From contig NW_024704742.1 of the NCBI RefSeq assembly GCF_018977255.1, positions 64,482,001-64,546,000 of the forward strand: a stretch of 64,000 nucleotides of DNA. Reading direction: 5' to 3'. Below the pieces are notes generated by a model. That model did no database searches. It was not told the origin of the DNA and saw only the letters and a list, made by a program, of their open reading frames with translations. Of the stretch, positions 1-62,640 are shown piece after piece. This DNA comes from Callorhinchus milii (Eukaryota). Position numbers and translations under genes: made by a program. Position 1 is the first letter of the stretch. Each line of letters starts with the position of its first letter.

Positions 1-265
1 AACGGTAATCATTTGAAACTTATTAAAGCTTATTTATGCAAAAGTAGCAAACACTGTTTTTGTCGTTATTGTGCTAGCAATTTGGTTTGACAAATAGTTT
101 TCAATTCCAACATAATATGTCTTTTGATTTGTTCTTTTAAATTGGAATATTACAAACTAACGATTGGAACCTGTTTTAACTAATACTAGGAGAAAGAAGA
201 AAGAAATTTAGGAAAACCATCTTCAGTTAAAGAAAAAGGAGATAATGGAAAATCTTCCAAAGATG
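1..265 (+). repeat. inverted duplicate of RGS12 8746-9010 (exon end, full intron, first 76 nt of next exon); continues off the left edge
   Basis: 1-265 is the reverse complement of 8746-9010 with no mismatch seen; identity stops abruptly after ...TCCAAAGATG. Confidence 0.97.
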
Positions 266-3081
266 AGAACAAGATTGCAAATAATTTCATTCAAGGAAAC
301 ATTATATTTTGCTTTGGTCAAGCGGATTATTTAATACATGTGAAAACACATCACTATGCTTAAGAGTATCCAAAGCAAACTACTTAAGAGTTCCAATGAA
401 ATTTGTCTAGAATGGTATGCGGATTCTCTCCTGAAGATGTGCACACTGCTCACCTAATCCCAGAAAACTATAGGCATGGGTTGGCAAGAGCCAACAACTT
501 TGTGAGTTTTCACGTGCATTTTCTTTCAAATATAATTTTTCAGAAAAGTTATCCAGTCCTCGACTGTAAAGTCCTTCAAGTGAAGAGCGCTCTATAAGTC
601 AAGTTGTTGTTGGTCCACCACATTACTATAGTCCCAGATGAAAGTCGATTTACCAAAGATGGTTATACTGTGTATTTGTAGTCGAATGGTGAATAGTACA
701 GATTGAACTTTAGGAATAATAGGCCAAAAGACTTCATACTGTGTTATGCATGTCTATGGTTCTATGATAAGAAGAGGTATAGGACTTGAATGAAGCATTA
801 TAGGCTATCTACTTGTCGAGCCAAACACCAGCGCGAGTCACTACCTTGAGAAGGATAGAAAAGTTGGGTCCAAAATAAAGGCATATAAATCAACTGTCAA
901 GCTAAAAATTATGGAAGCAAGCTCAAACATATATTATATATGGCAGTTATTTTAAAATACATTTCTAATTATATAAATCAATTAAGAAATCATGCAAAAT
1001 CAATTGTAATATCTCAATTCACATCATATCCTTAATAATATTCATTTCTAAATGAAAACTCAATCCTGCAATCTTGTAAATTTTAAATACATGATCAGGA
1101 AAACTATTTTGCAATGCTGAATGTAAAGGGCAGTTAAGGGAACATATTCAGTTTAACTTGCTTTTGCTGTCTAGCTATTGCTTCCTCATGATACAATACA
1201 AAATAATCCCTGAAGAAAAAAACCCAATAATAAATCGGTCACTTCAATCCACGACTGTTTGTGGGACATTGCTGTGTGCAATTGGCTGCCGCGTTTTGCC
1301 CACAAATATACAGTCAATTCACTTTACAGTATATTCTGTGAAGCGCTTTGGGACATCTAGAAGATGTGAAAAGCACTATATCAAATACAAGGATTATTGT
1401 GTTATAAAATACAACACAAAATTACATTTGTATAGATCCTTTCACGTCGGGAGGACGTCCTAAGGCGCTGGGACAGTAATACTCAAAGCACTGTTTGTAA
1501 ATTAGGTCATAAGTGAGGACTCTGATGTAGTACTGCTACCAATGTTACAACTTGATTTTCAGTCCCAATGGTCACAAGCGCAATAGATAAAATATTTATT
1601 TATATGCGCTGTATATGGTTCCCAGCTAATTGAATTCCCAGTGAATAGCAGCATAATAATCAGCAAACCAATCTCTGTTTTAGAGTTCTTTGTCAATCAT
1701 TAGATATTATTCTATTTTATTTATAATAGCATAAATAAAATATCCTTATTCCCAAAGTGTAATGATGATGGTGAATTGTATAAAAGGGAGTTGATTATAG
1801 AGAGGTAATTAGAACAAGAAGCTAGTAAAATTAAAATAATTTAAGTGTTAAACAATAAAGTTTGAGAAAAGATACAGTCTCTTTAGAGACTTTAATACAA
1901 AAAATGGAAAGATAGCAATACATTTGTGAAAACATCTACAACAGGTATCTACGAAGTACAGATAAATCATAAGAAAGCAAAAAAAAGTTTTTAATTCTAG
2001 GATGAATCATGGCAGTAAAACAATCTAAATTAGTGTACAGAATTATACAAACAAGATAGTAAAATTTACAAATAGCCAAGAACAATGCTTTTAATCAAAA
2101 AAGTAATGATTTCTTGGGTTAAATTTCATGCAACAAACTTTTCATAGAGGATTTTCCAGTTATAATTATTTGCTGAAAACAGAACAAACATCTGGTAACC
2201 TGATATCACATCCCCTTCAGGGATAATGTTGCAATTAATTTTTGACAGCCAGGTTACAAAATGAACATTGTTCAATGTAAGCCTGTTGGTTTTCAATTAT
2301 TGTTTAATTATAAAATTATAATTTGTTAAAAATTTTCTCAAAGAGCCTACTAACATTCATGAAAAGTAAAATACTAAATGAAGGCACTTAGAGTATAGGC
2401 AATTGCTTCAATCATCTAGCTCTTCAAAAGTATCTTTGGTCTCAAACCTATCATCAAAGTATTAGTTATCATTTACATTACATGAACTTAAATCATTCTG
2501 CAATTAAATTTGCGCAATGCTGCATGATATAAAAACAAATATTTCAACTGAGTTTAAACTAAAACTTCAGTACCACCTAAAATGTGCACTCTGACAATGA
2601 GATGATCAGGGAGATTAGAATGAGTTACTGTTGTTTGTCAAACAATGTAAAAACTGATTTGTGAAAAAGTGTTAATCATATTTAAAAATTATGTGTGGTC
2701 CTTGGATCTGTCTTGTGATAATTTCTCAATCACCAGTGCAGTGACATAATGTTTAATAAAACATTGCAGGAATTATTCTAGAAAGTGCAACGGGCCCAAC
2801 AAAATATCCTCAAACACAGTTAAAATTAATTACATAAAAATAATTTGTATGATACACATTGAAGTTCACCTTTTCTAGTGTCCCAATCCAGAGTTTTTTG
2901 TATTCTCTACAGTACTATGAACAGTTAGATACTGCAGAAAACATATGTGAACTGATAAATTAGTGCATTATGTATGCTTTGCAAGTCCTTTTCCAGTTTT
3001 AAAAATATTACTTTCAATACAATCAACAACACATTTAAAAATTGTTATGAATTATCCAGTCAACAAATGGACACACCCAAT

Positions 3082-3770
3082 TTAAATACCTGAAGCGGAT
3101 CTGTGGTGTGAAGAGTTCTTCTGATCATCAGAGCAGGGGGTTGGTGGAGTATAGTTAGCTACATCCAGTTTACTGATACTGGATGATGGTGTTAGTGAGG
3201 GAGGTAACAATGTACTGTTGGGGCTACTGATATCACCTTCTGCCACTAGAGTCAGATCAGATACATTCTCATCTTCACAAGGCTGTATTATTTCAGACTG
3301 CCTATCTCCAGAATGTCCTTCCCACCTCTGGTCATTCACATGTAGAATTGGAGAGACTGGTGCATGAAAGGGGACATCATGTAACTGCTGAATATCTGGT
3401 TTTACAAGATGGGATGGCACTGAAACAGGCCAATGCCGGCTGTCTTGTTGATGCATTGGCTTGCCTTTTAGATTGTTGGGATTTTCATTAAAATTCAGCG
3501 TAGACGGATTAGTTGGGCTGGAGTCTATAAACTCTAATTTATCAGACTGTTGTGCTGAGATGAAAGCTTTGTTCACAGAAGTATCTGTTTGGCTTTTGTC
3601 CTCACGTTTCTTGCCATTCACTTTATTTGCTACAGGTGTGGAGGAGCTAGGCTCAGGCATGGGAACCTTGAGGCGTAGAAAATCTGGTAGAACGAGGTCT
3701 TCTTTCTTCAAAAGTCCACGTTGATCATCGACCCGATTGCGTTGAGCTTTTGTCAAAAGATTAAATAACT
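3082..3770 (-). CDS. RGS12: RGS12 GoLoco exon (ELFNLLTKAQRNRVDDQRGLLKKEDLVLPDFLRL...EGDISSPNSTLLPP...)
   Basis: ttttggcag acceptor; GoLoco DQR triad; GDISSPNSTLLPP is RGS12-specific; ends at TAA 3082-3084 or splices out at the CAG|gtattt donor at 3090. Confidence 0.96.
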
Positions 3771-5547
3771 CTGCCAAAATGAAAATATCAATCCGGAAAT
3801 TAATACATCAGAGAAAAGCAAATGTAAGTTCTTAAGAAAAAATAAAACAACTCTCCTACCATAATAGTAAATCAACTCTTCGTTGGGTTTTGTTATCTGT
3901 CAAACATGGAAAAACTTCAATACGGGACTCTAACATGACTATAATTGCCTAAGAAGGCGAAATTCAGCCATCATTTGCATTTCCGAATAATATCCAGTGA
4001 AAAATATTGAACAGTGTGTAAATACCCATTGATAAGGATCAGGCTCAGCGGTCATGTACCAACAGTCGAACAGCAATCTAACACTAACTATGTGGATAGG
4101 GCATTTTGGGTGAGGTGCTTGAAGATGGTCAGTGCCAGTGGAACTGGACTTCAGCATGAGTCAGTACTTTCAGGATGTGGAAGGAGAAAATTGGAGCAAT
4201 CCAAAAAAAAAACAGGATAGAAAGATAGTCAGGCCAAAAACAATAGGGGGAAAGAAAGGAGACAATTAAGTTGAATGGAAAGAGAAGGAAACATTACAGG
4301 TTTTAATAGGGCATAAGTCATAGTGTAGCAAGAGAGTTTTGTAATATGGTTATTTCACTTTAAACATCTTTCACACAACCCTACGTATTTCTCCCACTAA
4401 TTTTCTCTTTTTCCTCAACAGTTAGGGGAATAGATAGCATCCTCTGTAGCCAAGAACGAGAGTCCTAAGGGTGTGTTGCCTACCTGGTGCCAGGGTAAGT
4501 GATATCTCGAGGCAGCTGGAGAGGAATTTGGAAAGGGAGGGGGCAGATCCAGTTGTGGTTCATGTTGGGACAAACGACATAGGTAAGAACAGGGAGGAGG
4601 TGCTGCAGAGGGAGTTTCAGGAGTTAGGAGCTAAGTTAAAAGATAGGACCTCAAGGGTAATAATCTCTGGATTATTACCTGAGCCACATGCAAATTGGAG
4701 TAGGGGAAGACAGATTAGGAAAGTTAACACATGGCTAAAGAATTGTTGTGGGAAAGAAGGGTTCCATTTCATGGGACACTGGCACCAGTACTGGGACAGG
4801 AAGGAGATGTACCGATGGGATGGGCTCCACATGAATCAGAATGGGACCAGTGTCCTAGGGAAAGGGTAAATAGGGCTGTGGCAAAGGCTTTAAACTAGTA
4901 AAATCGGGGGAGAGATCAGAAAGAAATGTCATAAACCCAAATATAAAGGAAACACGAGATGAGAGTATAGGTGAGACAAAACTAAGGAATAAGGAGAACA
5001 TAAATGGTCAGAGAATTAAAAATAAAGTGAGAGGAACAACTAATAAAAATGATTTGAACTGTCTTTACAGCAATGTACACAGCATCCGAAACAAAAAAGA
5101 ACTGGGGGCAATAATTCGTAGTGAAGAACCAGATATAGTAGGGATTACTGAAACATGGCTACGGAAAGTACAGGACTGGAAATTAAACATTGCAGTGTAT
5201 AACATATTTAGAAAGGATAGAGACAGGAGAAAGAGCTGTAGAGTAGCTGTACTTATTAGGGACAACATCATGGCAGTAGAAACAAGGGACATAGCCATTA
5301 GTAAGATAGAAACAGAATTTGTGTGGATAGACATAAAAGATGAGAAGGGATCAATCACACAAATACGGGTACTCTACAGACCACCTAATAGTGGAAGGGA
5401 GGTAGAGGAAAAAATATGCAAGCAAATTAGGGAAATGAGTAACAGACATACTGTAATAATCATTGGGGATTTCAACCACCCCCAAATAAATTGGCTTGAA
5501 GAGGTAGGTAAAGGGGATAAGGGAATGGAATTCCTTCAATGTGTACA

Positions 5548-5879
5548 GGACTCCTGTAGCTCAGTGGTTAGAGCATTCGCTTTGTAAGCGAGAGACCTGA
5601 GTTCAATTCCAGGCAGTTCAGGGCGAAACCTTGGGCAAGTTTCCTTTCTCCACACAGAGCCTAATAATAATCCCTCCAAAAAACAAAAACAATAATAAAT
5701 TGGTCATTTTCAATCTACGACTGTTTGTGGGACATTGCTGTGCGCAATTGGTTGCCGCATTCGCCCACAAATATACAGTCAATTCACTTTACAGTATATT
5801 CTGTGAAGCGCTTTGGGACCTCCTCCCGACGTGAAAAGTGCTGTATCAAATGCAAGGATTATTATTATTATTATTATTA
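5548..5879 (+). mobile_element. tRNA-derived SINE with Deu-like core and L2-type tail, nested in CR1
   Basis: A box (TAGCTCAGTGG), B box (GTTCAATTCC), ctgtttgtgggacattgctgtgcgcaattgg core, (TTA)n tail; near-identical copies elsewhere in the window. Confidence 0.9.
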
Positions 5880-7229
5880 CCCAGAGGCCCAACAAGGGAG
5901 GAATCACTGCTGGATGTAGTAATGGGAAATGAACCCAAGCAGATAAGAGAAGTAAGAGTAGGGGAACATCTAGGCAATAGCGATTATAACTTAATAAGGT
6001 TTAAGATAAAGATTGAGTATGACAAAGACCAGGGTAATAGATTGGAAAAAAAGCTGATTTTGAGGGGATGAAAATGGAACTTGGGAAAGTAAACTGGAAA
6101 ACAATATTGGCAAACAAAGAGATAGAGCAGCAGTGGGAAACATTTAATATGGTGATCGATAAGATTCCAGGAGAAATATATTCCGCTAAAAAACAAGATA
6201 AAGCTAAACAATAGTGAAACGCCGTGGATGAATAAAGACATAAGAGCAAAGTTGAGACTGAGGAAAGAGGCGTTCACTGAGTACATAAACAACAAGGGAG
6301 ATCATGACAAAAAAGAATACGAAGAGGTTAGTCAAAACAACAATTAGGAAGGCAAAGAGGAACTATGAAACTAAATTATCAAGGAATATAAAAGACATAG
6401 TAAAATATTCTACAGACATAAATAACAAAAGAAAAATCAAAATAAGAATAAGGCCACTAAGGGATGGACAAGATAAGTTCACAGACAGCGACAGCAAAAT
6501 GGCAGAGATATTGAACAATTACTTTGCCTCAGTTTTTAACAGGAAGATGGATCAGGTGGATATGACAGTAAAAAAAATCAAAAATTATATAAATACATTT
6601 AAGATAAAAAGGGGGCGATAACCAATAAACTAACCAAACTCAGAGAGGATAAAACCCCTGGTCCGGATGGATTGCATCCGCGTTCATTAAAGGGATAGCA
6701 GAGACACTATTACATATATATAATTCATCAGAAAAGGGAGTAGTGCCAGAGGACTGGGGGATAGCTAATGTTATACCTATATTTAAAAAGGGAGATAGAA
6801 CAAGCCCAAGGAACTATATATCTGTCAGCTTAAAAGTGGTGGCAGGAAAGATAATGGAATCTTTACTGAAAAGGGTAATAGAAAACTTCTAGAAACCGAA
6901 AATATAATACAGCAACAAAATTACATTTGTAAAGTGCATTTCACGTCACGAGGACGTCCAAAGGCCCTGAAGAATAGTCTGCAACAAATAATAAAAACTG
7001 CAACAAATAATAAAGAAGTCAGTATGGATTTCAAAAAGGAAGGTCATGCTTGACCAATCTCATTGAATTCTTTGAAGAGGCAACAGAAAGAATACACAAG
7101 GGTAATGCAGTAGGTGTAATATATTTGGATTTCCAAAACACATTCGATAAGATACCACATAATAGACTAACGAATAAGGTCAGAGCATGTGGAGTCAGCC
7201 ATTCTTATTTATTATTTATTTATTATTCT

Positions 7230-7484
7230 TCATTAGCTTTCAGCCACTCTGCCCCCAACCTCTGGGATTCCATCCCCCCAATCACTCCGCCTCACCCCTT
7301 CTTAGCCTCCTTCAAGTCCCGCCTCAAAACCCTCCTCTTCGAGCATGCCCTCGGTCACCCCCACTTCCCCTTCCCTCCCTTCCCCCTCCCTGACCCCAGC
7401 TCGGGTTTGAAAAGCTGATCATTTCTTTTTGAAATGCTGTATGACGTGAAAGGCGCTATACAAATGTAATCTTGTTGTTGTTGT
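7230..7484 (+). mobile_element. L2 LINE 3' fragment nested in CR1
   Basis: AFSHSAPNLW...FKSRLKTLLF C-terminal motif and (TTG)n tail. Confidence 0.8.
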
Positions 7485-8664
7485 CAGGCGAAAAGTAGCA
7501 GAATGGATAACAAGCTTGGCTACAAGATAGAAAACAGAGACTAGGGGTAAGGGGTAGCTAAGCTACTCAGACTGGCAGAGGGTGGGAAGTATTGTTCCAC
7601 AAGGATCGGTATTAGGATCACTGTTCTTCACAATTTACATTAATGATTTAGACTCGGGGATTGAAAGTACAATTTAAAAAATTGCGGATGACACCAAATT
7701 GGGGGGAGTAGTTAATATTGAGGAGGACTGCAACAAATTACAAGACATTCATAAACTTGCTGAATGGGCATTTAATTGGCAAATGAATTTCAATATAGAT
7801 AAGTGTGAGGTGGTACATTTTGGTAGGAGGACTAAGGAGGTCACATACTGCATGGAAAATAAGAATCTAAATGGGGTAGAGGTGAAAAAACATCTAGGGG
7901 TAGACACACAAATCACTAAAAGTAGCTATGCAGGTTACTAAGACCATAAAAAAAGCAAACCAAGCATTGGGATTCATTTCTAGAGGGATAGAAATAAAAA
8001 GCAGGGAAGTTATGCTAAACTTATATCGAACATTGGTTAGACACACGGAGTACTGTGTACAGTTCTGGTCCCCATATTATAGAAAAGATATAGAGACACT
8101 GCAGAAGGTGCAAAGGAGATTTACAAGGATGATACCAGAACTGCAAGGTTATACCTATCAGGAAAGGCTGAACAAGCTTGGACTCTTTTTTTCTTGAAAA
8201 GAGAAGGTATTATAGGATAGACATGGAGAAGATGTTTCCACTTGTGGGGAGACCAAAACCAGGGGCCATAGATATAAAATAGTCACCAATAAATCAATCA
8301 GGGAAGTCAGAAGAAACTTCTTTACCCAGAAAGTGGTGGGAATGTGAAACTCGTTACCACAAGGAGTAGTTTAGGCGAATAGCATAGATGCATTTAAGAG
8401 GAAGCTAGATAAGTACATGAGAGAGAAAGGAATAGAAGGTTCTGCTGATAGGCTTAGTTGAGGATGGGCAAGAGGAGGCTCATGTGGAGCATAAATGCCA
8501 ACATAGACCAGTTGGGCCAAATGCCCTGTTTCTGTGCTGTATATTCTATGTAATTCTATGTCTGTATTGCTTCATGGCAGACTGGGTTAAAACACTTCCT
8601 TCCACTGAATTGGTACTATTCATTAAGTTACTGTGCTAGCCAGTTATTTTGTAGCTTAATATAC

Positions 8665-8821
8665 CTTCTACTTCATTCAATTTCAGTTTGGGCTGTTTCT
8701 TCTTTTCTGTCCTTTCAATTAAATCTTCTTTCTTCAAACTTCTTCCATCTTTGGAAGATTTTCCATTATCTCCTTTTTCTTTAACTGAAGATGGTTTTCC
8801 TAAATTTCTTTCTTCTTTCTC
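8665..8821 (-). CDS. RGS12: RGS12 exon (EKEERNLGKPSSVKEKGDNGK...KKKQPKLKLNEVE)
   Basis: 157 nt, atactag acceptor, gtatat donor, phase 0 to 1. Confidence 0.92.
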
Positions 8822-9006
8822 CTAGTATTAGTTAAAACAGGTTCCAATCGTTAGTTTGTAATATTCCAATTTAAAAGAACAAATCAAAAGACATATTATG
8901 TTGGAATTGAAAACTATTTGTCAAACCAAATTGCTAGCACAATAACGACAAAAACAGTGTTTGCTACTTTTGCATAAATAAGCTTTAATAAGTTTCAAAT
9001 GATTAC

Positions 9007-9074
9007 CGTTACATCATGATTTCTTGTGCCCAAAGTGGATGGACCTGGTTTCACTCCTCCACTCTTCTGTTTAT
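9007..9074 (-). CDS. RGS12: RGS12 exon (DKQKSGGVKPGPSTLGTRNHDVT)
   Basis: 68 nt, tttacag acceptor, gtaatc donor, phase 1 to 0; DKQK...RNH motifs shared with RGS12. Confidence 0.9.
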
Positions 9075-9361
9075 CTGTAAATAAACATTGTAATGGATGA
9101 TACTCTATTACAATAGCTCTACAACTCTAAAGAACCATTACTAATGACTGATCTTAAAATAAACATATGAATAATACAGTGACTCTTAAGCAGCTTTTAA
9201 ATTGAAATTTGGATGACAAACATTCAAAATTTGGCATGAATTTTAAGAGGAATGAAAATTCCACAAAAGAAATTGGGGATTCTGATGCATTTTTTGCAAT
9301 TATTTTTGTTTAAAGGGAAATGAGACAAACATCTGAAAAGGAAAAATATAAAATAATAGGG

Positions 9362-9797
9362 GGATAAGGCAGGGGAATGGGCCTAAATAGTCCCAATGTT
9401 AGAAAGAACCAACATAGGTATGATGGGCCAAATGGCCTAATTCTGTGCTGAAAATACTGAAGGATGCTAATTGGGTGGAAATTGTCTAAACTCATTTCAT
9501 GAGTCAAGACAGAGAGTGTCCTACTCAAAGAGTTGACAGAGTAAACTTTCAATTCATCTATCTGGGCTTGAGCTAAAACTCAGTTATCAGACTGTGTCAT
9601 CCACTTAACAAATATTTTAGTGCATGGACCAGTTTATTTTCATGTAACACAATCTCACACCCAAGGCTCCTGCTAAAAATGTCTTAGAATCTAACTCAAT
9701 AGTTCTTAAGAACATAAGAAATGCTGAACAAAAAAAGACAAAGGGCCTTCTGGTTCGCCTTCCACCTTCCTTGGCGATCGCAAGCACATATGTCCTG
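9362..9797 (+). repeat. direct duplication, copy A (copy B at 13752-14570)
   Basis: colinear similarity with long exact runs such as catctatctgggcttgagctaaaactcagttatcagactgtgtca. Confidence 0.9.
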
Positions 9798-10075
9798 AAC
9801 TACCTATGTACTATATCCAAAAAAATTGTTGGTCAGAAAGATGCCTGACACATATAATCATGCTTAAGAGTACCAAACCTAGGAGAGTTCCTTGCATCCC
9901 AGCTACACATGGAAATTCCTGGGTATTGGAATGGAATGTTCACTCTTTCCCTGGAGGGATTCCCTAATTCCAGAGATTGTTAGTAGGTGCAGGTTGGCAC
10001 GAATCCTCACTCTACACTTGTACTCACTGAAAAAATCATCACCTCCAGCTATAAAATGAACTACATCTTGCTTAC

Positions 10076-10172
10076 CTTTTCCTGCACTATGCTCTGCAAC
10101 ATCCAGAACAACACGCATTCCATCAAGATTAGAGATAGGAATGCCAAGATCTAAAACTTCATCTTCTCCATT
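10076..10172 (-). CDS. RGS12: RGS12 exon, end of RBD2 (NGEDEVLDLGIPISNLDGMRVVLDVAEHSAGK)
   Basis: 97 nt, ttctatag acceptor, gtaagc donor. Confidence 0.95.
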
Positions 10173-10542
10173 CTATAGAATAAAAATAAGGAATAAACTT
10201 AATTTCTCATCTTAATTACAAGTAAAAAATAAAGAATTAGCATTACACAGAACTGTAGGACATAAACCAAGTATAAAAAAAGGAAATATGGTCCATGTAT
10301 CTCTCCCCATCACCCAGGTGAATCCTTAAGATATTCAGATCATTGTTACCTTCTTCTATCTTTATTTTTTGAATGGTAAAACTTCCTACACCCTGACCCA
10401 AAAATGCATCTTAAACCCACCCTTAGGAAATTCTACCAACATAAGAATTTGCTAGGCGAAAGAAGATCAAGGACTTCTTTTGCAAACCCAATTTGCCTTC
10501 TATCTTTCTGGCAGTCGCATGACATATCATGCCCCAAACTGT

Positions 10543-11429: not shown

Positions 11430-13745
11430 TCGATCCGTTCAGTGATGGGGAGCCAGTAGAACCTGGCCAGAACTGATGAGATGTGGGTACGAAGTTTGTT
11501 CCAGGGTCGGTATGCGGGCAGCAGAGTTCTGAATGAGCTGGAATTGTGCATCAACTGCATATATGTGGAAGTTTACCCCCGTGTCTGAGGATGATATCGC
11601 CAAGAGTGAGCATATAGATGAGGAAAAGAAGGGGGCCAAGGATGGAGCCCTGGGGGTACCCCGAGGGTGAATGGGCAGGGGTGGGAGGAGAAACCATTTG
11701 CCGAGATGAAGTGGAGGCGGTTGGTTAAGTAGGATTCGACCATTTGTGTGCAGTCCCACTAAGGTGGATAAGGGGGGCGAGGCAGTGGAGAAGGATGGCA
11801 TGGTCGACTGTGTCGAACACAGCAGAGAGAACCAGGACGACAAGGAGGCAGAGGGAGCCCTGGTCACAGATAGAGAGGACATTGTTTGTGACTTTGATAA
11901 GTGCTGTCTCTGTGCTGTGAGCAGGGCGAAAACCAGACTGCAGAAACTCAAGGAGGGAGTGGAGGGAGGGGTGTGACTGACGTTGATCTGCAACAATGCA
12001 TTCCAGGACTTTGGCAAGGAAAGGTAGGTTGGAAATGGGATGGTAGTGCAGAGGGATCGAGGGTGGATTTTTTGAGGAGGAATGTGATAACAGCGGTTTC
12101 ATGGAGAGTGGAAAAAGCCTGAGGAGAAAGACTGGTTGACTGTGTCGGCCAGCAGGGGAGAGAGGAGGAGGAGTTGAGTGACCAGCAGCTGGGTGGGGAG
12201 GGGTTTGAGGCAGCAGGTGGTGAACTTCATGCAGGATTGTGGTTGAGAGGGAGGAGGAAGAAATGGGGGCAAAGGAATGGGTAGTGGCAGGAGCTGTGGC
12301 GGAGGGAGAAGGTGGTGTGGATGGTTTGGGTGGGGTGCAAGGTGACATGGGTGGGGTGGGAGGAGAAGGACAATGCTGCCAATCGCATGTTTGCAATCTT
12401 TGAGACAAGGAAGTCTACAATCTCTTCGCACTTGGTGTTTGATGTGAGGATAGAAGGAGCTTGAGGGGGAGCATGGAGGAGGTGATGAATGGTGGAAAGC
12501 AGTGTCTTTGGGTTGTTTTTGGCCTCCAGGATGACTTTGGAGTAAAAGTCAGTTTTGGTCTGTGAAAGCGAGAGGCGGTAGGTGCACAGGGGCTCGAGCC
12601 ACAGATGGCGGTGAATCGTAAGGTGGGATTTCTGCTACCTGCACTCAAGTATCCGGGTTTGTGCTTCAAGTGAGCAGAGATGTTGTACTGGGGGAGCGGG
12701 TGGAATTGGAAATAGCCCTGGATTTCAGGGGAGCCAGGAATTGGCTGCATCAGGATCGCTGCGGGTGGAGGGCCAGAGGGAGAGGAAGTCCGAGGAAGAG
12801 AGGGCATATGTGAGGGACTCAGGGGGAAGCTTTTTTCAGGGGCAGAAAAAAATGGTGGAGAGCTTGGAAGAGGCAAGGGGGATGCGGAAAGAGAGGGAGA
12901 TGAGGAAGTGGTACGAGATGGCCTTGTCCTTGATGGTCACGTCGAAAATGTCTGGCCATGTGTGATGACGAGTTTGAGGGGGTGGCCACGGTTGTGGGTT
13001 GGTGAGTTGATGTGGAGGGTGAGTTTAGGGAGGAGAGGAGGGCAGTGAAATCCGAGGAGGTGGTGCAAGGAGAGTTAAGGTGGAGGTTGAAATCACCCAT
13101 TATGAGCAGATGTTCATTGCAGTGGGATAGGGATGAGAGGAGAGCGGAGATATCGGTGAGGAAGGAGCCAGGAGGTTTGGGAGGGCGGTAACTAGGAGAA
13201 TTTTGAGGGAGCGAGAGGAGGGATGGTAGAGGATGAGGTGCTCAAAGGAGGAGAAACAGCCAGAGGAATAGAAGATAGACCAAGGGAAACTTGGGAAATG
13301 AGGGCCACCCCGCCGCCACTTTGATTGGGACGGGTGTGTGGTGAAAAGTGTAGCCAGGAGAGTAGGCTTCAACGAGGGGCACGGGATCACCAAAGGAAAG
13401 TCAGGTTTCTGTAAACCCTAAAATATCGATGTGCTCATCCAGGATGAGGTCATGGATAGTAAAAGCTTTATTGGAGAGGGAGCAAACATTCTGGAGGGAA
13501 ATGCAGATAGGTTTGCTGGTGGTGGGGGATGGAGGGGAGAGTGTAATAGAGAGGATTTGGGGTCGTGGGGGAGAAATGACTGTGGAATTTGAGGAGGGGG
13601 GAGAGTTGGAGAGGCTATGGATGAGGGAGTGGGAAGGGGTGTTTGCCTTTCGGAGACAGTTGGTGCAGAGAGTGAGCGATGGGACAGTTGGCCTGGCTAC
13701 TCTGGGACAACCAATGCCAGGAGCCACTATGGGCCCGGCGAAGGA
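11430..13745 (-). mobile_element. L2-clade LINE, degraded, with APE and partial RT
   Basis: LQNVCSL..GFTET, MGDFN, QSGFRPAHSTETAL and AVFDTVDH motifs; internal deletion after YAVDAQ. Confidence 0.88.
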
Positions 13746-27975: not shown

Positions 27976-28228
27976 CAACAACAACAACAACAACAAGATT
28001 CCATTTATAAAGCGCCTTTCACGTCAGGAGGACGTCCCAAGGCGCTGTACAGTTGGGTCATGACCCGAGCAGGGGGGAAATGGTCAGGGTGAGGGGAGGG
28101 AAGGGAGGGAGCGAGGAGGGGGGAAATGGTCAGGGTGAGGGGAGGGAAGGGAGGGAGCGAGGAGGGGGAAGAGAGTCGAGAGGGGAGCTGAAGGCTCGGT
28201 CAAAGAGAAAGGCTCGGTCAAAGAGAAA
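27976..28228 (-). mobile_element. young L2 3'UTR fragment with 2 x 46-bp repeat
   Basis: near-identical to 50963-51190; 18-bp duplication at its 5' truncation point. Confidence 0.88.
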
Positions 28229-30261: not shown

Positions 30262-30405
30262 CTGAAGCTGTTGCTCTTTAAACATATTGGGGTGTGGCGC
30301 ATTAATGATTTCATCAGCCAATTGTGCTTGACTGTCAATGTTGACCGGTGTGATTGCCTTATTAGATAAAAAATTATTGTAGATCTCCCGGGCTCTGTAT
30401 AAAAG
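30262..30405 (-). CDS. RGS12: RGS12 exon, RGS domain (LLYRAREIYNNFLSNKAITPVNIDSQAQLADEIINAPHPNMFKEQQLQ)
   Basis: 144 nt, translated by hand (frame not in the ORF track); ttcacag acceptor, gtatag donor; PVNIDS motif. Confidence 0.96.
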
Positions 30406-32890: not shown

Positions 32891-33864
32891 TGTGGAGGAG
32901 AAACAAGACTGTTTATAAACAACAAATTGTTTTCATTTCCTTATCAGTCATTTTCTCACGAAAAAATGGTCTACAGCTGTAGAGCGCTCTGTTGCATTTG
33001 TTTTTACAAAGGAGGTGAAAGGTCACCTAATCAACGGTATACATGGAGATCGATTCAAAGGAGAGAGAGAAGGAAGAAATTGGAACTTGGGAGTCACGAA
33101 CCATGTTCCAGCTTCTAAAGAAGGAAGATTAAGACTACGATTTAAACAACACTAAACGTACAATAATACCTGGATACTTTTGTGTGATATCGAACTGGGA
33201 ACCGTATAACAATACTTGGATACCCTTTGATGGACATATATTTGAATTAAAATGGACATTAAATTGGACATTGCTCCTCTATCTCTCCCACAGCATTTGG
33301 TTTGATCAACTTAAATCGTTGTGAACTGTAGTATATGTGGATAAGTAAACATAATTGGATGTATTCTGTTAATTATTTACAACCATTATTAATCTGAATT
33401 AATAAACCTTGATTAATTGTATAACATTTGTATCAGTCCTTACTTCTCTTTGACCGAGCCTTCAGCTCCCCTCTCGACTCTCTTCCCCCTCCTCGCTCCC
33501 TCCCTTCCCTCCCCTCACCCTGACCATTTCCCCCCTCCTCGCTCCCTCCCTTCCCTCCCCTCACCCTGACCATTTCCCCCCTCCTCGCTCCCTCCCTTCC
33601 CTCCCCTCACCCTGACCATTTCCCCCCTCCTCGCTCCCTCCCTTCCCTCCCCTCACCCTGACCATTTCCCCCCTCCTCGCTCCCTCCCTCCCTTCCCTCC
33701 CTCACCCTGACCATTTCCCCCCTCCTCGCTCCCTCCCTTCCCTCCCCTCACCCTGACCATTTCCCCCCTGCTCGGGTCATGACCCAACTGTGCAGCGCCT
33801 AAATGGAATCTTGTTGTTGTTGTTACTTCACCGCCGCTTCACAAAATTAAAATTAAACCTTACA
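32891..33864 (+). repeat. 5' LTR (left end uncertain; contains an L2 insert)
   Basis: similar to 37770-38305; AATAAA at 33401-33406; ends CCTTACA just before the PBS. Confidence 0.88.
33447..33822 (+). mobile_element. young L2 3'UTR fragment with 6 x 46-bp repeat, inserted in the 5' LTR
   Basis: TSD TTACTTC at 33440-33446 and 33823-33829; the empty site is visible in the 3' LTR (gtccttacttcaccgc). Confidence 0.93.
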
Positions 33865-33865
33865 T

Positions 33866-33883
33866 TGGCGCCCGAACAGGGAC
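33866..33883 (+). promoter_or_regulatory. primer binding site complementary to tRNA-Lys(UUU)
   Basis: TGGCGCCCGAACAGGGAC, a perfect 18-mer 1 nt after the LTR terminal CA; complementarity extends through TTGA. Confidence 0.95.
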
Positions 33884-33887
33884 TTGA

Positions 33888-34726
33888 GCCATTCTTTGAT
33901 GAAATATTGACGGAGAGTTATGAAATCCCTGGGGTAAACACATCCATGTGTATTGTTGTTTGTGAAAAGTAAAAGCAAATTTGTACTGACAATCAGGATG
34001 TAACGGAACAGACCAAAACCAATTTGATACGTCAAGTACAGAAAATACTTTTGACTGAGGTGTAGTCCTCATGAGCACATCTGGTGCATACGCCACTGTC
34101 AGAGAACAACATTGTGTATTTTGATTTAATCTCCTATAATCTACTGTGAGTCTCCATGAACCATCTGGTTTTCTAACTGACCAAATGGGAGAATTATTAG
34201 AGTTTGTAATCCTTCTTAAAACTCCCTGTTTCAATAATGAAATTATAGTGGCTTGCACATGTGCATCAGCTTCCAAGGAAAGCAATATTGCTTCTGTGGA
34301 TGTGGAGAGTCTTTTCCAATAACGTTAACCTGTCCTGTTAGCTTCTCACAATCGTGTTTACGATTTGTGAAAACAACATTGTTAGTACATTAGCAATGTT
34401 AAAAATGTCATGTGTTAACACTTTATTTAAATCATACCCCTCGGTTTTCTTTATTGCATAAACAGCTCCATGATCTGTTATTTTATTCCAAATATATGTG
34501 CCAGGTTTGGTACTTTTAACTTGCCATAGTAGTTTGTTTGCAAAATCAATTATTAAATGATATTTGTCCAACAGATATGCATCAATAATATTTAAATGGT
34601 CTGGAGTGTTCACCAAAATACATGGCAATTTATTTCTAAATATCCCATTTGAAGTGGAATTGATTCCACCCCATATTGACAATTGCCTGTAAATCCACCT
34701 AATTGGTGATAGCTTCAAGTTGCTAA
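33888..34726 (-). pseudogene. inverted protease C-half plus RT N-half of the provirus
   Basis: NSPIWSVRKPDGSWRLTVDYRRLN, VLDVSNWFWSVPL and LPQGFHNSPSIFHQRM on minus, opposite to the rest of pol. Confidence 0.92.
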
Positions 34727-37342
34727 TCAAGTGACAGCACAGTTTAGCCAACCTACTGCTATCATTCAATATGTTGATGATTTATTGTTACACATGCCTG
34801 ACATGGACTCATGAACAATTATTGATGGAGCTTTTACAATTGCTCTATAAATCAGGATTAAAAGTAAATCCTAAGAAAGCAAACAGTTGCTAAGGAGACT
34901 ATCATTTTTAGCAATCCAAATTGGTAAAAATGGTCGCACTCCTGATAAATATAAATACAGATTATTGACTGCTTATTCTTTGCCAACTTCTGTCACAGCA
35001 GTGAGATCCTTTTTAGGACTGATAGGATTTTGCAGGGATTTTATTGAAGATTTTGCTACACTCAGTGCTCCCCTCTATGCTTTGTTACGAAAACATGCTG
35101 AATGGAATTGGACGCCAGCCTGTATTGAAGCAGTACAAAAATTAAAACAAGCTTTAGCGTCAACGCCTATTTTACAAGCTCCAGAAAGGGAAGCGCCTTT
35201 TTATTTAGAGGTAGCAGCCACAGATTTCTCTATTTCAACAGTTTTATTACAGCTCATGCATAATAAACTGTGTCCATATGCATATTAACTCCTGTAGAAT
35301 TACATTTTTCAAAATGCGAAAAACATTTATTGATCAATTTTTGTCGATACAACATTTTGAATACATTGTTGGTTTATCACCTATGGTCTTATTAACCAAT
35401 CACACCCCAACAGAATTACTGTTAGATGGTCGATTAAAAGTTGGATCAGTATCAAATGTCTGTCTGGCTCGATGGACTTTGTTGTTACAAGGATAAGACG
35501 TTATGATTAAACAATCCACTTCTCTGCCATTTTTGACTAACAATTTACTGCATGAGGGAGATACTCATTATTGTGATATAAGTGGCCCAACTTACCTGGA
35601 GGGTTCATTCAAGGCAATTGAAATTCTACAATTTACTACTGTCTACATCAATGGTTCTAGTTCAGTAGTAGTGGGGGTAAGGCAAACAGGATTTGGAATT
35701 TATGTTCCAAATATGGATTTAAAACTAGAAATGTCTTTACCTGATTACTGGTCAGCACAGGGGATAGATTTAGCTGCAATTGCATGTGTTTTACAAAACA
35801 TTGACAAGTATCCATTACCAATTACAATCTATTCAGATTTTATGTATATATGTAATTCACTTACAGAGTATCTGCCAATATGGAAGGCGAGGGGGTTTGT
35901 ATCAGCAGACAGGAAACCACTCCCTTCTGGAAAATTACTGCAAGCTATTATTAAAATGGCTTTACCATGAGTCTCGAATTGCAATTCAAAAAGTCAAAGC
36001 ACACACAAAGATCATACCTCGTGCAAAAGGTAATAATGTAGCAGATGAATTGGCAAAGAAAGGGGCAATAAGTGACACAAAATGGGATCCAGCCATATTG
36101 TACCAATCTATGGAAAAAGTGGCCACAATAATCTCAAGAGAAAACCTGTAGATTTAAAATGTGCCCAAGACATTGATGGGGAAATAATTCAGACTATTAA
36201 AGCACTAAATTCTAAAGAAGCCGTGAATAATCAATATTCAAGGCATGTATCAACTTTAAGTGTAAAACATGGTTTATTGTTTTATAAAGATTTGTGAGTG
36301 GTTCCAATAATTTTTCAGAATGACTTTTTACAACAAGTACATGATGTGCCCACCTCTGGACATCAATCCAGCTCTACTACACTAAAGCGACTGCAACAAA
36401 TAGTCTGGTGGATACCTTTTGATGGACATATTAATCCTGACTTAAAATTTAAAGAAAGCATTGTTGAAACATACAAGGATCTCACTTTACAGGAAAGGTG
36501 ATGGAATGTGCAATGCATTTGCTAGGAATTACACAGAAATTCCATATAGCATACCATCCTCAATCATCAGGAATAGTGGAACGTATGAACCGAACTCTAA
36601 AACTGTTACACAAATTTATCACTGAAAAAGTAAAATGTTGGGATCAATTGTTACCATTAGTGCTCATGGCAATTAGATCAACACCTTCTCGGTTAACATT
36701 TTCACCATATGAGTCAATGACAGAGATTAAAGCATACACCTGAACATTTATGGTTTACTGATATGGCAGATCCTAAAATTCAGGCTGTGACACGTGAACA
36801 ATATGTAAAACAATTGTACTTACATTTCAAAGAAATACATTTGTTTTCTGCTTCAAACATTATCCGTTCTGAACAGACAAATGCTATGTACTTTGATCAA
36901 AAAGCAAAACTGGTAAAGCGGGAAATTGGCCAAAGGTTTACAGTAAAAAACTATGATCTAAAAGGACCATTCTACCCTCGATATGCCGAACCATACCATA
37001 TTTGTGGATAAAGCAAGTACTTCAGTGTACAGGGTAGCCAATACTACCAAGAGAAATGCATGTCCAAAGTGCTGTAATTGATCAAGATTGTATAAATGCA
37101 GTGATGATAAACCTGATTGGAACCCTCCTTTGCAGGATATAAAACCCAAGTGTGTGTTAAATGATTATCCAAAAAGAAGTGAATATCTTCACATTTGGGA
37201 TGATGTTATTTTGCCTTTTGAGGAAGATCAAATCAGGAAAAGAATTGAAGAGTCAATGCATAGACCATTGAGATCTGTTAATTCCTTAGAAGACGTAAGT
37301 ATAGAAGTCGCAACGACATCAACAGCAGTAGATCAAGAATGA
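34727..37342 (+). pseudogene. pol remainder: RT C-half, tether, RNase H, partial integrase
   Basis: QVTAQFSQPTAIIQYVDDLL onward; stops and frameshifts; deletion inside integrase near 36410-36500. Confidence 0.92.
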
Positions 37343-50962: not shown

Positions 50963-53210
50963 ACAACAACAACAAGATTCCATTTATAAAGCGCCTTTCA
51001 CGTCAGGAGGACGTCCCAAGGCGCTGCACAGTTGGGTCATGACCCGACAGGGGGGAAATGGTCAGGGTAAGGGGAGGGAAGGGAGGGAGCGAGGAGGGGG
51101 GAAATGGTCAGGGTGAGGGGAGGGAAGGGAGGGAGCGAGGAGGGGGAAGAGAGTCGAGAGGGGAGCTGAAGGCTCGGTCAAAGAGAAAGGTTTTGAGACC
51201 GGCCTTGAAGGAGGAAAGGGAGGAAGCGGCGAAGGCACTGGGGGATGGAGTTCCAGAGCCTCGGGGCTGAGAGGCTGAAGGCCCGGCCACCGATGGTAGG
51301 GCGGTTGGGGCGGGGGATGTGGAGCAGACCGGAGCCAGAGGAACGGAGGGTACGGGCAGGTAAGTAGGGGGATAGTAGGTCGGAGAGGTAGGAGGGGAGC
51401 GAGGCCGTGAATGGCCTTGTAGGTGAGGATGAGGATCTTGAATTCGATCCTCTGGGGGATGGGGAGCCAGTGGAGGTGAGCGAGGGTGGGAGTGATGTGG
51501 TCCTGGTGCGGGACAGTACACGAGCTGCAGAGTTCTGAATGACCTGCAGCTTGTGGAGGTTGGAGGAGATGACCTGCGCGGGGTGGCGGGGGGGACGGAG
51601 GAGTCGGGTTGTGGTGGAAAACAGTAGCCTGGGGTTGTTCTTCGCCTCCAGGATTATCCTGGAGTAGAAGGACGACTTGGCCGAGGCTAGAGTGGAGCGG
51701 TAGATTTTGAGGAGGTCCAGCCAGATTTGTCGGTGGACCGTTAGGCCAGATTTGACAAAGGTGCGTTCAGCGGCCCGCACCTGGCTTTTCAGTGAGCGGA
51801 GGTGGGTGGTGTACCAGGGGGAGGAGCGGGAGTAGGAGACAGTGCGGGAAGTGATGGGGGCAAGAGTATCGAGTGTGGAGGAGAGGGTATTGTGGAGGAG
51901 GGAGAGAGGAGAAGAGGGGTCGGTGAGGGTTGAAGGCCAGAGGGAGAGGAGTTCAGAGGACTCCAAGGCATCGGTTAGGGATTGTGGGGGTAACTTCTTC
52001 CAAGGGCGGTAGAAGATGGTGGTGGGTCTGGTGGAGGTGGGGAGGGGGGTGGAGGTGGTGAAGGAGATGAAGTAGTGGTCAGAGATGGCCTTGTCGGTAA
52101 TAGTGACATCCGAGACACTGAGGCCCCGGGTGATCACCAAATCGAGTGGGTGGCCGTGACTGTGAGTGGGGGAGTTTATGTGTAAGGAGAGGTTGAGTGA
52201 GGAGAGCAGGGAAGAGAAGTCTGTGGAGATGGAGCAGGAGGGGTGAAGTGTAGGTTAAAGTCGCCCAGGATGATGAGGCGATCGGAGCAGAGGCAAAGAG
52301 ATGTGAGGAGTGTTGAAATGTCAGAGATGAAGGTGGGAGAGGTTTTAGGGGGCCGGTAGAGGAGGAGGATTTTAAGGGAGAGGAATGAGGGGTGGGAGAG
52401 GGTGAGGTGCTCAAAGGAGGGGAAAGAGCCAGTGGAGTAGGGGGATAGGGCAAGTGGTGTCCTTGAGATAAGGGCAACACCACCGCCACGGCGGTTGGGG
52501 CGGGGATGTGGTGGGAGGTGTAGCCGGGTGGTGTGGCCTCCGTGAGGGGAAGGTGTCGCCTGGGGTGAGCCAGGTTTCCGTTAAGGCCATGATATCAACG
52601 TTCTCATCAAGGATGAGATCGTTGATGACCAGGGCCTTGTTGCAGAGGGAGCGGACATTTTGCAGTCCGATGTGGAGGGAGCGGTTGACAGAAGGGTGTG
52701 TGGGAGGGGAGGGGGGTCCAGGTTGTGAGGCAGGGGTGGGGGAATGGGGATGAGGGAGGAGAGGTTGACTCCCCGGGTCTGTGTCCGGGGTGGCTGGCGA
52801 GTGTGGTGGGGAATGGGGCAGTCGGTGTGGCTGCTGCTGGACAGCCAACGCCGAGTGCCACGGTGAGCCCGGCGGAGGATTCCCAGGCTGGAACAGAGGG
52901 AGGTTGTGGGAGGGTCAAGTGGGGATAGAAGACGAGAGGGACGGAGAGAGAGGAGGAGAGAGCGGGATAGATGCAGAGGGGGGAGGGTTTGGGGATAGAG
53001 AGGAGGGGGGAGCGGTGGAGGGGGTGAGGGGGCTCGGGTCAAAGCGGCAGCCATAGTGCGCACGCGGGGACCGGGAGCGAGCGGTCAGGTGGATGGCATT
53101 ATCCCGTAGATTGGGGCAGCGAACGCAACAGGACCATAGTGGGCTCTGATGTGAGCCCTGGGGGGGGGGGGGGGGCGCAGAGGGTTTTTTTTTTTTTTTT
53201 TTTTGCGCGC
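50963..53210 (-). mobile_element. young L2 element keeping its 5' region, APE endonuclease and 3' end but lacking RT
   Basis: GLQNVRSLCNK..MALTETW and ISDHY motifs; in-frame join near 51572 to HKLQVIQNSAAR; CpG-rich; 2 x 46-bp repeat and (TTG)n tail. Confidence 0.88.
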
Positions 53211-62369: not shown

Positions 62370-62640
62370 AGCTGCCTTCAGCCTTCAGCTCCCCTCTCGA
62401 CTCTCTTCCCCCTCTTCGCTCCCTCCCTTCCCTCCCCTCACCCTGACCATTTCCCCCCTCCTCGCTCCCTCCCTTCCCTCCCCTCACCCTGACCATTTCC
62501 CCCTCCTCGCTCCCTCCCTTCCCTCCCCTCACCCTGACCATTTCCCCCCTGCTCGGGTCATGACCCAACTGTGCAGCGCCTTGGGACGTCCTCCTGACGT
62601 GAAAGGCGCTTTATAAATGGAATCTTGTTGTTGTTGTTGT
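62370..62640 (+). mobile_element. young L2 3'UTR fragment with 3 x 46-bp repeat
   Basis: same family as 33447-33822; TGTCTT on both sides as a likely TSD. Confidence 0.88.

Follow-up and report, generated by a model that had tools for sequence, protein, structure and literature searches.

As assembled, the RGS12 gene of the elephant shark Callorhinchus milii carries, in what appears to be the last intron of its long isoform, a junction at which part of an upstream RGS12 exon has been joined to the intron in inverted orientation. Within the window, by which we mean the whole 64,000-nt stretch of DNA that was analysed, the first 265 nucleotides form one arm of a perfect inverted repeat, and the other arm lies inside the gene (Table 1). 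With a probability of about one half, this structure is best read as a young in-cis inverted duplication generated by strand fold-back, an allele of the DUP-NML-INV/DUP type that is present in the sequenced animal and not in the whole species. The junction itself is probably private or polymorphic.

Table 1. Features of the RGS12 junction region, in window coordinates. X1-X3 and X5 are sequencing runs; P0123 is a protein model.
Feature	Position	Strand	Remarks
Inverted arm	1..265	+	exact copy of 9010-8746, gene sense on + strand, runs off window
Hybrid frame	190..363	+	25 RGS12 codons plus 32 new codons, TAA 361-363
Junction signature	263..280	+	3 shared bases (263-265) in an 18-nt block, 14/18 columns match 8748-8733 (-)
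Spacer	266..8745		8,480 nt between arms
Likely short dispersed repeat at breakpoint	266..374		depth 712-1165, bin 230-572, runs X1-X3
Short-isoform 3' untranslated part, start of the long isoform's last intron	1890..3081	-	X5 record 27
GoLoco exon	3082..3770	-	internal form 3770-3090, 681 nt, phase 1 to phase 1
GoLoco exon, short isoform	stop 3084-3082	-	read-through past the 3090 donor
Native arm	8746..9010	-	self-comparison
Native exon, intact	8662..8821	-	both sides spliced in X5; copy breaks at 8746
Antisense intron piece in L2-like repeat, first exon of P0123	11563..11605	+	14/14 residues

The inverted repeat

An earlier note on this DNA had described positions 1-265 as the reverse complement of 8746-9010, and self-comparison bears this out with zero mismatches. 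None of the other 121 inverted pairs found in the window is as long, and among the 25 of the 121 that were listed, this pair alone both exceeds 150 nt and is 100% complementary. The content given for the arm also holds, namely 4 nt of exon 9075-9007, the 185-nt intron 9006-8822 (also spliced out in run X5) and 76 nt of exon 8821-8662, and the copy does lie tail to tail with RGS12. The suggestion that the copy is young is likewise supported. Within the spacer lie the part of the native exon that the broken copy lacks (its 3' half), one intron and the GoLoco exon, followed by the first stretch of the last intron.

On the intron side of the junction, positions 266-374 are likely a short dispersed repeat, to judge from their high depth in runs X1-X3, the unique contigs of which begin at 345. 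A second copy was not found in the window by self-comparison, and an Rfam search of positions 1-4000 returned 0 matches. Recombination between repeats at the two breakpoints was rejected, since self-comparison shows no repeat common to them.

Two 3' ends of RGS12

RGS12 lies on the minus strand, where its last coding stretch in the window is 100% identical to protein P0001 over 229 aa; the 14 exons of P0001 tile from 45832 down to 3085. The GoLoco motif maps to the start of exon 3770-3090, and since this lies after the break, the inverted copy is without GoLoco, as the earlier note had stated. The motif of the elephant shark (3771-3706, minus strand) scores 24.7 bits against a Pfam cut-off of 25.1, compared with 32 in Heptranchias; automated domain lists omit it because its score falls just below this cut-off.

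The protein has two alternative C-terminal ends. Of 120 listed homologues, 84 end in ATFV, and 22 terminate a few residues past the donor of the GoLoco exon, like P0001. The latter, read-through ending recurs in birds, turtles, frogs, marsupials and sturgeon, and the choice between the two ends is an old one. The idea that the short SASGI ending is a product of the rearrangement was rejected on account of the same 22 homologues. The long ending takes the form KATFV in 9 of 10 other cartilaginous-fish proteins, and the corresponding C. milii exon is present in models P0123, P0126 and P0002. This exon was not found within the 64-kb window; because it lies outside, positions 266-3089 would be the beginning of the long isoform's last intron. 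The junction is located about 1.6 kb past a presumed-RNA contig of the short isoform (X5 record 27, a single contig spanning 1890-3772, with ATTAAA at 1896). The placement of the copy past the RGS12 3' end, as originally proposed, is thus correct for the short isoform only, the site being inside the last intron of the long one.

Two further details of the gene models were observed. Two donors 6 nt apart (9007-9013, minus strand) separate the RefSeq isoforms X1 and X2 (P0124 and P0001), and sequencing run X5 uses the donor at 9007. At 10035-10037 (minus strand), the UniProt models P0002 and P0127 read V, and the window and runs X1-X3 give D. This difference of one base beside a T run may be a variant of the junction-linked copy or a 454 error.

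Extent of the arm beyond the window

The ancestral order of the region can be written A-c-d1-d2-E. Here c ends at 8746, the 8,480-nt spacer is made up of d1 and d2, with the GoLoco exon in d2, and E stands for the remainder of the last intron plus the KATFV exon. In these terms, the junction at 265/266 links position 8746, where c ends, to position 266, where the spacer ends, on the opposite strand. Model P0123 (XP_042198087.1), annotated on the same contig as P0001, offers a view of what lies to the left of the window. Its first 14 residues correspond to the plus strand of 11563-11604, followed by an A and a GT donor in a phase that fits the GoLoco exon; elsewhere in the window, no site matches more than 7 of the 14 residues. 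The exon order of P0123, i.e., the antisense piece 11563-11605, the GoLoco exon and the KATFV exon, corresponds to c(inverted)-d2-E. Read most simply, P0123 indicates that the inverted arm is likely no shorter than 2,860 nt, and that a second GoLoco exon and the true gene end come after it. It is less likely that P0123 starts at the window's own 11563 and runs on rightward of the window. The GoLoco exon thereby occurs twice in the annotation of the newer build, the second copy being implied by P0123, and there are two apparent copy gains, the arm and the GoLoco exon each being found twice in the newer build or its annotation; the pairs may also be two haplotypes. Model P0125, which contains the intact exon and starts at 30285, was not used as proof of a 21-kb arm, as it may be a second haplotype or a transcript-filled model.

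Recurrence of the junction in an older genome build

The peptide encoded across the junction is present in two further models, P0126 (RefSeq XP_007903474.1) and P0137 (UniProt A0A4W3JQR2); the cluster of P0001 has 7 members. P0126 is full-length from the PDZ domain, crosses the junction for 25 of the 32 new residues and then continues into the GoLoco and KATFV exons, and P0137 likewise reads across the junction. Judging from record numbers and exon order, we infer that both models rest on the 2014 build, P0126 being a gi-numbered record and hence presumably older than the long-read build. The older build was assembled with CABOG from 454 and capillary reads (PMC3964593), and the newer one with FALCON from PacBio reads, the assembly description in supplement 1 of PMC8302630 containing no reuse of old contigs. 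According to the reply to reviewers in supplement 2 of PMC8302630, one animal supplied DNA for all of the authors' papers. Because both builds share this DNA source, the junction is backed by two library types but by one animal.

These observations make it likely that the junction is real DNA. A chimeric read should be missing from independent libraries, and a read chimera is unlikely because the junction peptide also occurs, in P0126 and P0137, in the older build made from other libraries. The broader explanation of a pure assembly or library artefact, whether a fold-back or a chimeric read, would account for arms that are identical over 265 nt and for the lack of a junction-spanning read or contig among the pieces listed for four runs. 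It is nevertheless improbable, given that the junction is base-exact in two models that differ in layout and come from other libraries and another assembler, that the breakpoint carries microhomology and microhomeology, and that the arms are 8.5 kb apart and not abutting. The earlier note had considered an artefact, either a fold-back or a haplotype misjoin. The former is unlikely, and the latter survives in a modified version, in which the junction is real and belongs to one haplotype but the duplicate arm is false.

The two builds differ in the order of the segments. In the older, P0126 links the 5' part of the gene to the junction; in the newer, P0001 links it to the intact exon, and the order in the window agrees with the newer models. 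Because both builds come from one animal, every double copy could be accounted for by two haplotypes. The main alternative, possible if tentative, is an inversion of the 8.5-kb spacer in the heterozygous state, alone or with a flanking deletion or small duplication, in which the junction would be real and the duplicate arm false. The assembler would have taken the normal haplotype through the spacer, switched to the inverted one at the junction and run a few kilobases back into the gene, in which case the duplicate arm and the second GoLoco exon would both belong to the other haplotype. Transcription from the RGS12 promoter of the inverted allele would then run into the junction, and the GoLoco exon would be lost. 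The difference in order between builds of a single animal, arms that are 100% identical, and the unrearranged continuation found in run X5 all fit such an inversion, as does the fact that the newer build had contig-end overlaps of at least 10 kb that were merged only if they reached at least 30 kb (supplement 1 of PMC8302630). The inverted arm has no annotated protein in the newer annotation, which would suit a short spur of this kind; a short arm fits the missing protein under either reading. On the other hand, the same junction is found in both builds, and the reciprocal one in 0 of 10 retrieved models, where it would show only by luck. Moreover, in both builds (P0126, P0002 and P0123) the junction and the KATFV exon are separated by a GoLoco exon in sense orientation, the reads of the newer build, with an N50 of 13.3 kb (PMC8302630), could span the 8.5-kb spacer, and the polarity of the junction fits self-priming, which yields a duplication.

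Several peculiarities of the older models were also considered. P0126 joins 339 (plus strand) to 3807 (minus strand) without a canonical acceptor on the window sequence; position 3807 comes after an in-frame stop, and both sides of the join share ATGT with a one-base offset. Our guess is that this odd join reflects a gap in the older assembly. A direct second junction linking 339 and 3807 was rejected, as the frame of the model is not reproduced on the window sequence, and it is also disfavoured by the kilobases of spacer that the window has beside the junction; a search for a partner of position 3807 returned 16 candidates, which is the chance level. P0129 and P0137 were set aside as evidence of a second gene, as both could simply model short isoforms of this one. 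In the literature, the accessible part of the supplement to PMC3964593 contains no mention of RGS12, WSSD, segmental duplication or heterozygosity, no publication naming RGS12 together with Callorhinchus was found, and none of the literature matches listed for elephant-shark structural variants carried the species name.

Junction signature and proposed mechanism

Contig record 25 of run X5 fits the window from 1070 down to 263 and then continues with 308 other letters. Because it fits as far as 263, the three bases at 263-265 are common to both partners of the junction. They are embedded in an 18-nt block whose match to the partner (78%) exceeds the 70% cut-off used for microhomeology (PMC6902434); only 24 of 18,280 sampled positions score equally well. 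The free energy of the fold-back pairing is a weak test, 173 of 3,943 positions pairing as well. The junction sequence matches the spacer side perfectly and the exon side imperfectly, and by the donor-acceptor rule given in PMC6902434 the priming end would be the gene-sense strand that ends at 263. Its imperfect partner is found 8.5 kb back on that very strand, as an intrastrand fold-back requires. This polarity favours a duplication without proving one, a between-strand switch that gives the same polarity being possible.

The preferred fold-back duplication can be outlined in four steps. The gene-sense strand would first have broken or stalled, leaving a 3' end at 263. As the junction suggests, this end would then have annealed to its own strand at 8748-8733, by three perfect bases within the 14 matches of the 18-nt block. 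Segment c would next have been copied backwards, the product of which is seen in the assembly. Finally, as P0123 suggests, a second switch would have led back into the intron ahead of the GoLoco exon. The predicted product, A-c-d1-d2-c(inverted)-d2-E, is a DUP-NML-INV/DUP allele.

Evidence from other samples

Four of 24 listed runs, from two studies, were placed as contigs on positions 230-10500, with 32 of 184,888 pieces listed. One of these, X5, is by our guess an RNA run and carries three exon-exon joints. Position 8746 is crossed unbroken by contigs of X1 (8533-9584), X2 (8593-9409) and X3 (8533-9584), each with at least 153 letters on either side. X5 crosses the other breakpoint into sequence that is not the arm, and in it the intact exon is joined by splicing to both of its neighbours (8820/9006 and 3770/8665). 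The finding that contigs in 4 of 4 other samples cross a breakpoint unbroken suggests that the junction is not fixed. Had the junction been there at comparable depth, contigs of this kind ought to have been interrupted by it. This contig evidence is weakened by the repeat at about 266-374 and by graph simplification, through which Logan contigs drop variants (PMC12424806). The gap at 236-295 among the pieces listed for X1-X3 has no evidential weight.

The same data bear on the view that the rearrangement is fixed or common in the species and that the arm is a young transcribed paralog or an antisense source, which is very unlikely. A paralog would be expected in other individuals, and the contigs of all four runs pass a breakpoint unbroken, a result that contig simplification weakens; graph cleaning beside the repeat 266-374 could, we suspect, have hidden the junction. 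The unbroken contigs over 8746 in all three genomic-type runs, the divergence of X5 beyond 263 and the splicing of the intact exon on both sides in X5 argue against fixation. In its favour, the junction is present in both builds, and a 149-nt spacer contig (7834-7982) stands at 0.52-0.60 of the mean depth in each of three runs, the value expected of a fixed duplication. Contig 5020-5155, however, has 1.06-1.64 times the mean depth, and long contigs within one run differ up to 2.5-fold; contig depth was rejected as a measure of copy number because it is too noisy.

The hybrid reading frame

As reported in the earlier note, the frame that enters the junction from the arm remains open for 32 new codons up to the stop at 361-363, and an AATAAA is present at 874 on the plus strand, both of which could be cited in support of a transcribed paralog. 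In random draws at local composition, however, 32 open codons occur in 8% of cases. Of 10 retrieved C. milii proteins, those of the newer annotation all lack the new tail, and no protein of the inverted arm was found in that annotation (in one search, of 343-1,092 residues among the 8,000 best candidates). No junction-spanning splice joint is present among the 15 of 671 joints listed, and no promoter has been shown for the inverted copy, the 5' end of the arm being beyond the window. The proposal of a new paralog is thus not borne out, and nothing supports either a new paralog or a functional 32-residue tail.

Comparison with known rearrangements

In human PLP1 rearrangements of the DUP-NML-INV/DUP class (PMC6902434), which is termed dupINVdup in PMC5338099, distal ends are joined in inverted orientation with microhomeology at the join, and the shark junction is alike. 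For this class, three layouts satisfy the same two junctions (PMC6902434), and the two shark builds fit two different ones of the three. PLP1 events span megabases, whereas the shark event spans kilobases inside one gene of a wild fish, and its second junction is only implied by P0123. Human fold-back duplications have spacers of 766-70,466 bp (median 3,428) and microhomology of 2-8 bp (Hermetz et al. 2014, PMC3907307). The shark spacer of 8,480 nt, its three shared bases and its intrastrand polarity are all within or like the human range. In the Hermetz type, however, the distal end is lost through terminal deletion, translocation or ring formation, which is not the case in the shark. Because the distal KATFV exon is kept in both annotations, the shark event would be interstitial and a second switch would be needed.

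False duplications are produced by heterozygous regions in unphased long-read assemblies, and contigs that overlap or duplicate one another are described for the newer build in supplement 1 of PMC8302630. The present case resembles them in its identical copies, its origin from a single animal and its build-dependent order; at most the arm, and not the joint, would be false, because the junction recurs in an independent build. Taken as a whole, the junction is likely a real-looking, young, inversion-type junction of an already known class.

Implications for RGS12

If the DUP-NML-INV/DUP layout A-c-d1-d2-c(inverted)-d2-E is true, the short isoform would be untouched and the arm, lacking a promoter, would sit in the last intron as an insert and not a gene. 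The pre-mRNA of the long isoform would be predicted to carry both arms and two in-frame GoLoco exons, and since both arms would be held in one molecule, double-stranded RNA would need no antisense promoter. In the two other layouts with the same junctions, transcription from the RGS12 promoter would run into the junction and might produce a 1,214-residue protein lacking GoLoco. A far-reaching extension, to which we assign only a slight chance, is a segregating or fixed allele in which a single fold-back event has given the last RGS12 intron both a perfect inverted repeat, 2.9 kb or more in length, and another GoLoco exon that is in frame, together with a fold-back pre-mRNA. Such a pre-mRNA would loop out the first GoLoco exon and could yield either RGS12 proteins that differ in having one GoLoco motif or two, or a circular form of that exon, so that domain multiplication and an RNA-structure splice switch would have been caught at birth.

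The practical consequence concerns the reference models of RGS12, which are split or garbled: in the newer annotation the conserved KATFV exon is assigned to a separate "RGS12-like" model (P0123), and in the older the main protein (P0126) includes residues derived from the junction. Anyone who uses this slowly evolving genome as an outgroup might mistakenly conclude that a paralog exists or that the C-terminus has been lost. The junction also displays, in a wild cartilaginous fish, a signature of human genomic disorders. The event would be of greater importance if the allele were common and altered GoLoco dosage or exon choice, which nothing here shows.

Other repeats in the window

An RGS12 intron contains two short reading frames at 33863-34781 (minus strand), one of which (34324-33863) looks like a decayed reverse transcriptase of an LTR element or retrovirus. 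Four dispersed arrays of a 46-nt unit, at 28024-28212, 33411-33813, 51048-51236 and 62380-62594, are 98-99% alike and occur in both orientations; they are likely the ends of a young mobile element.
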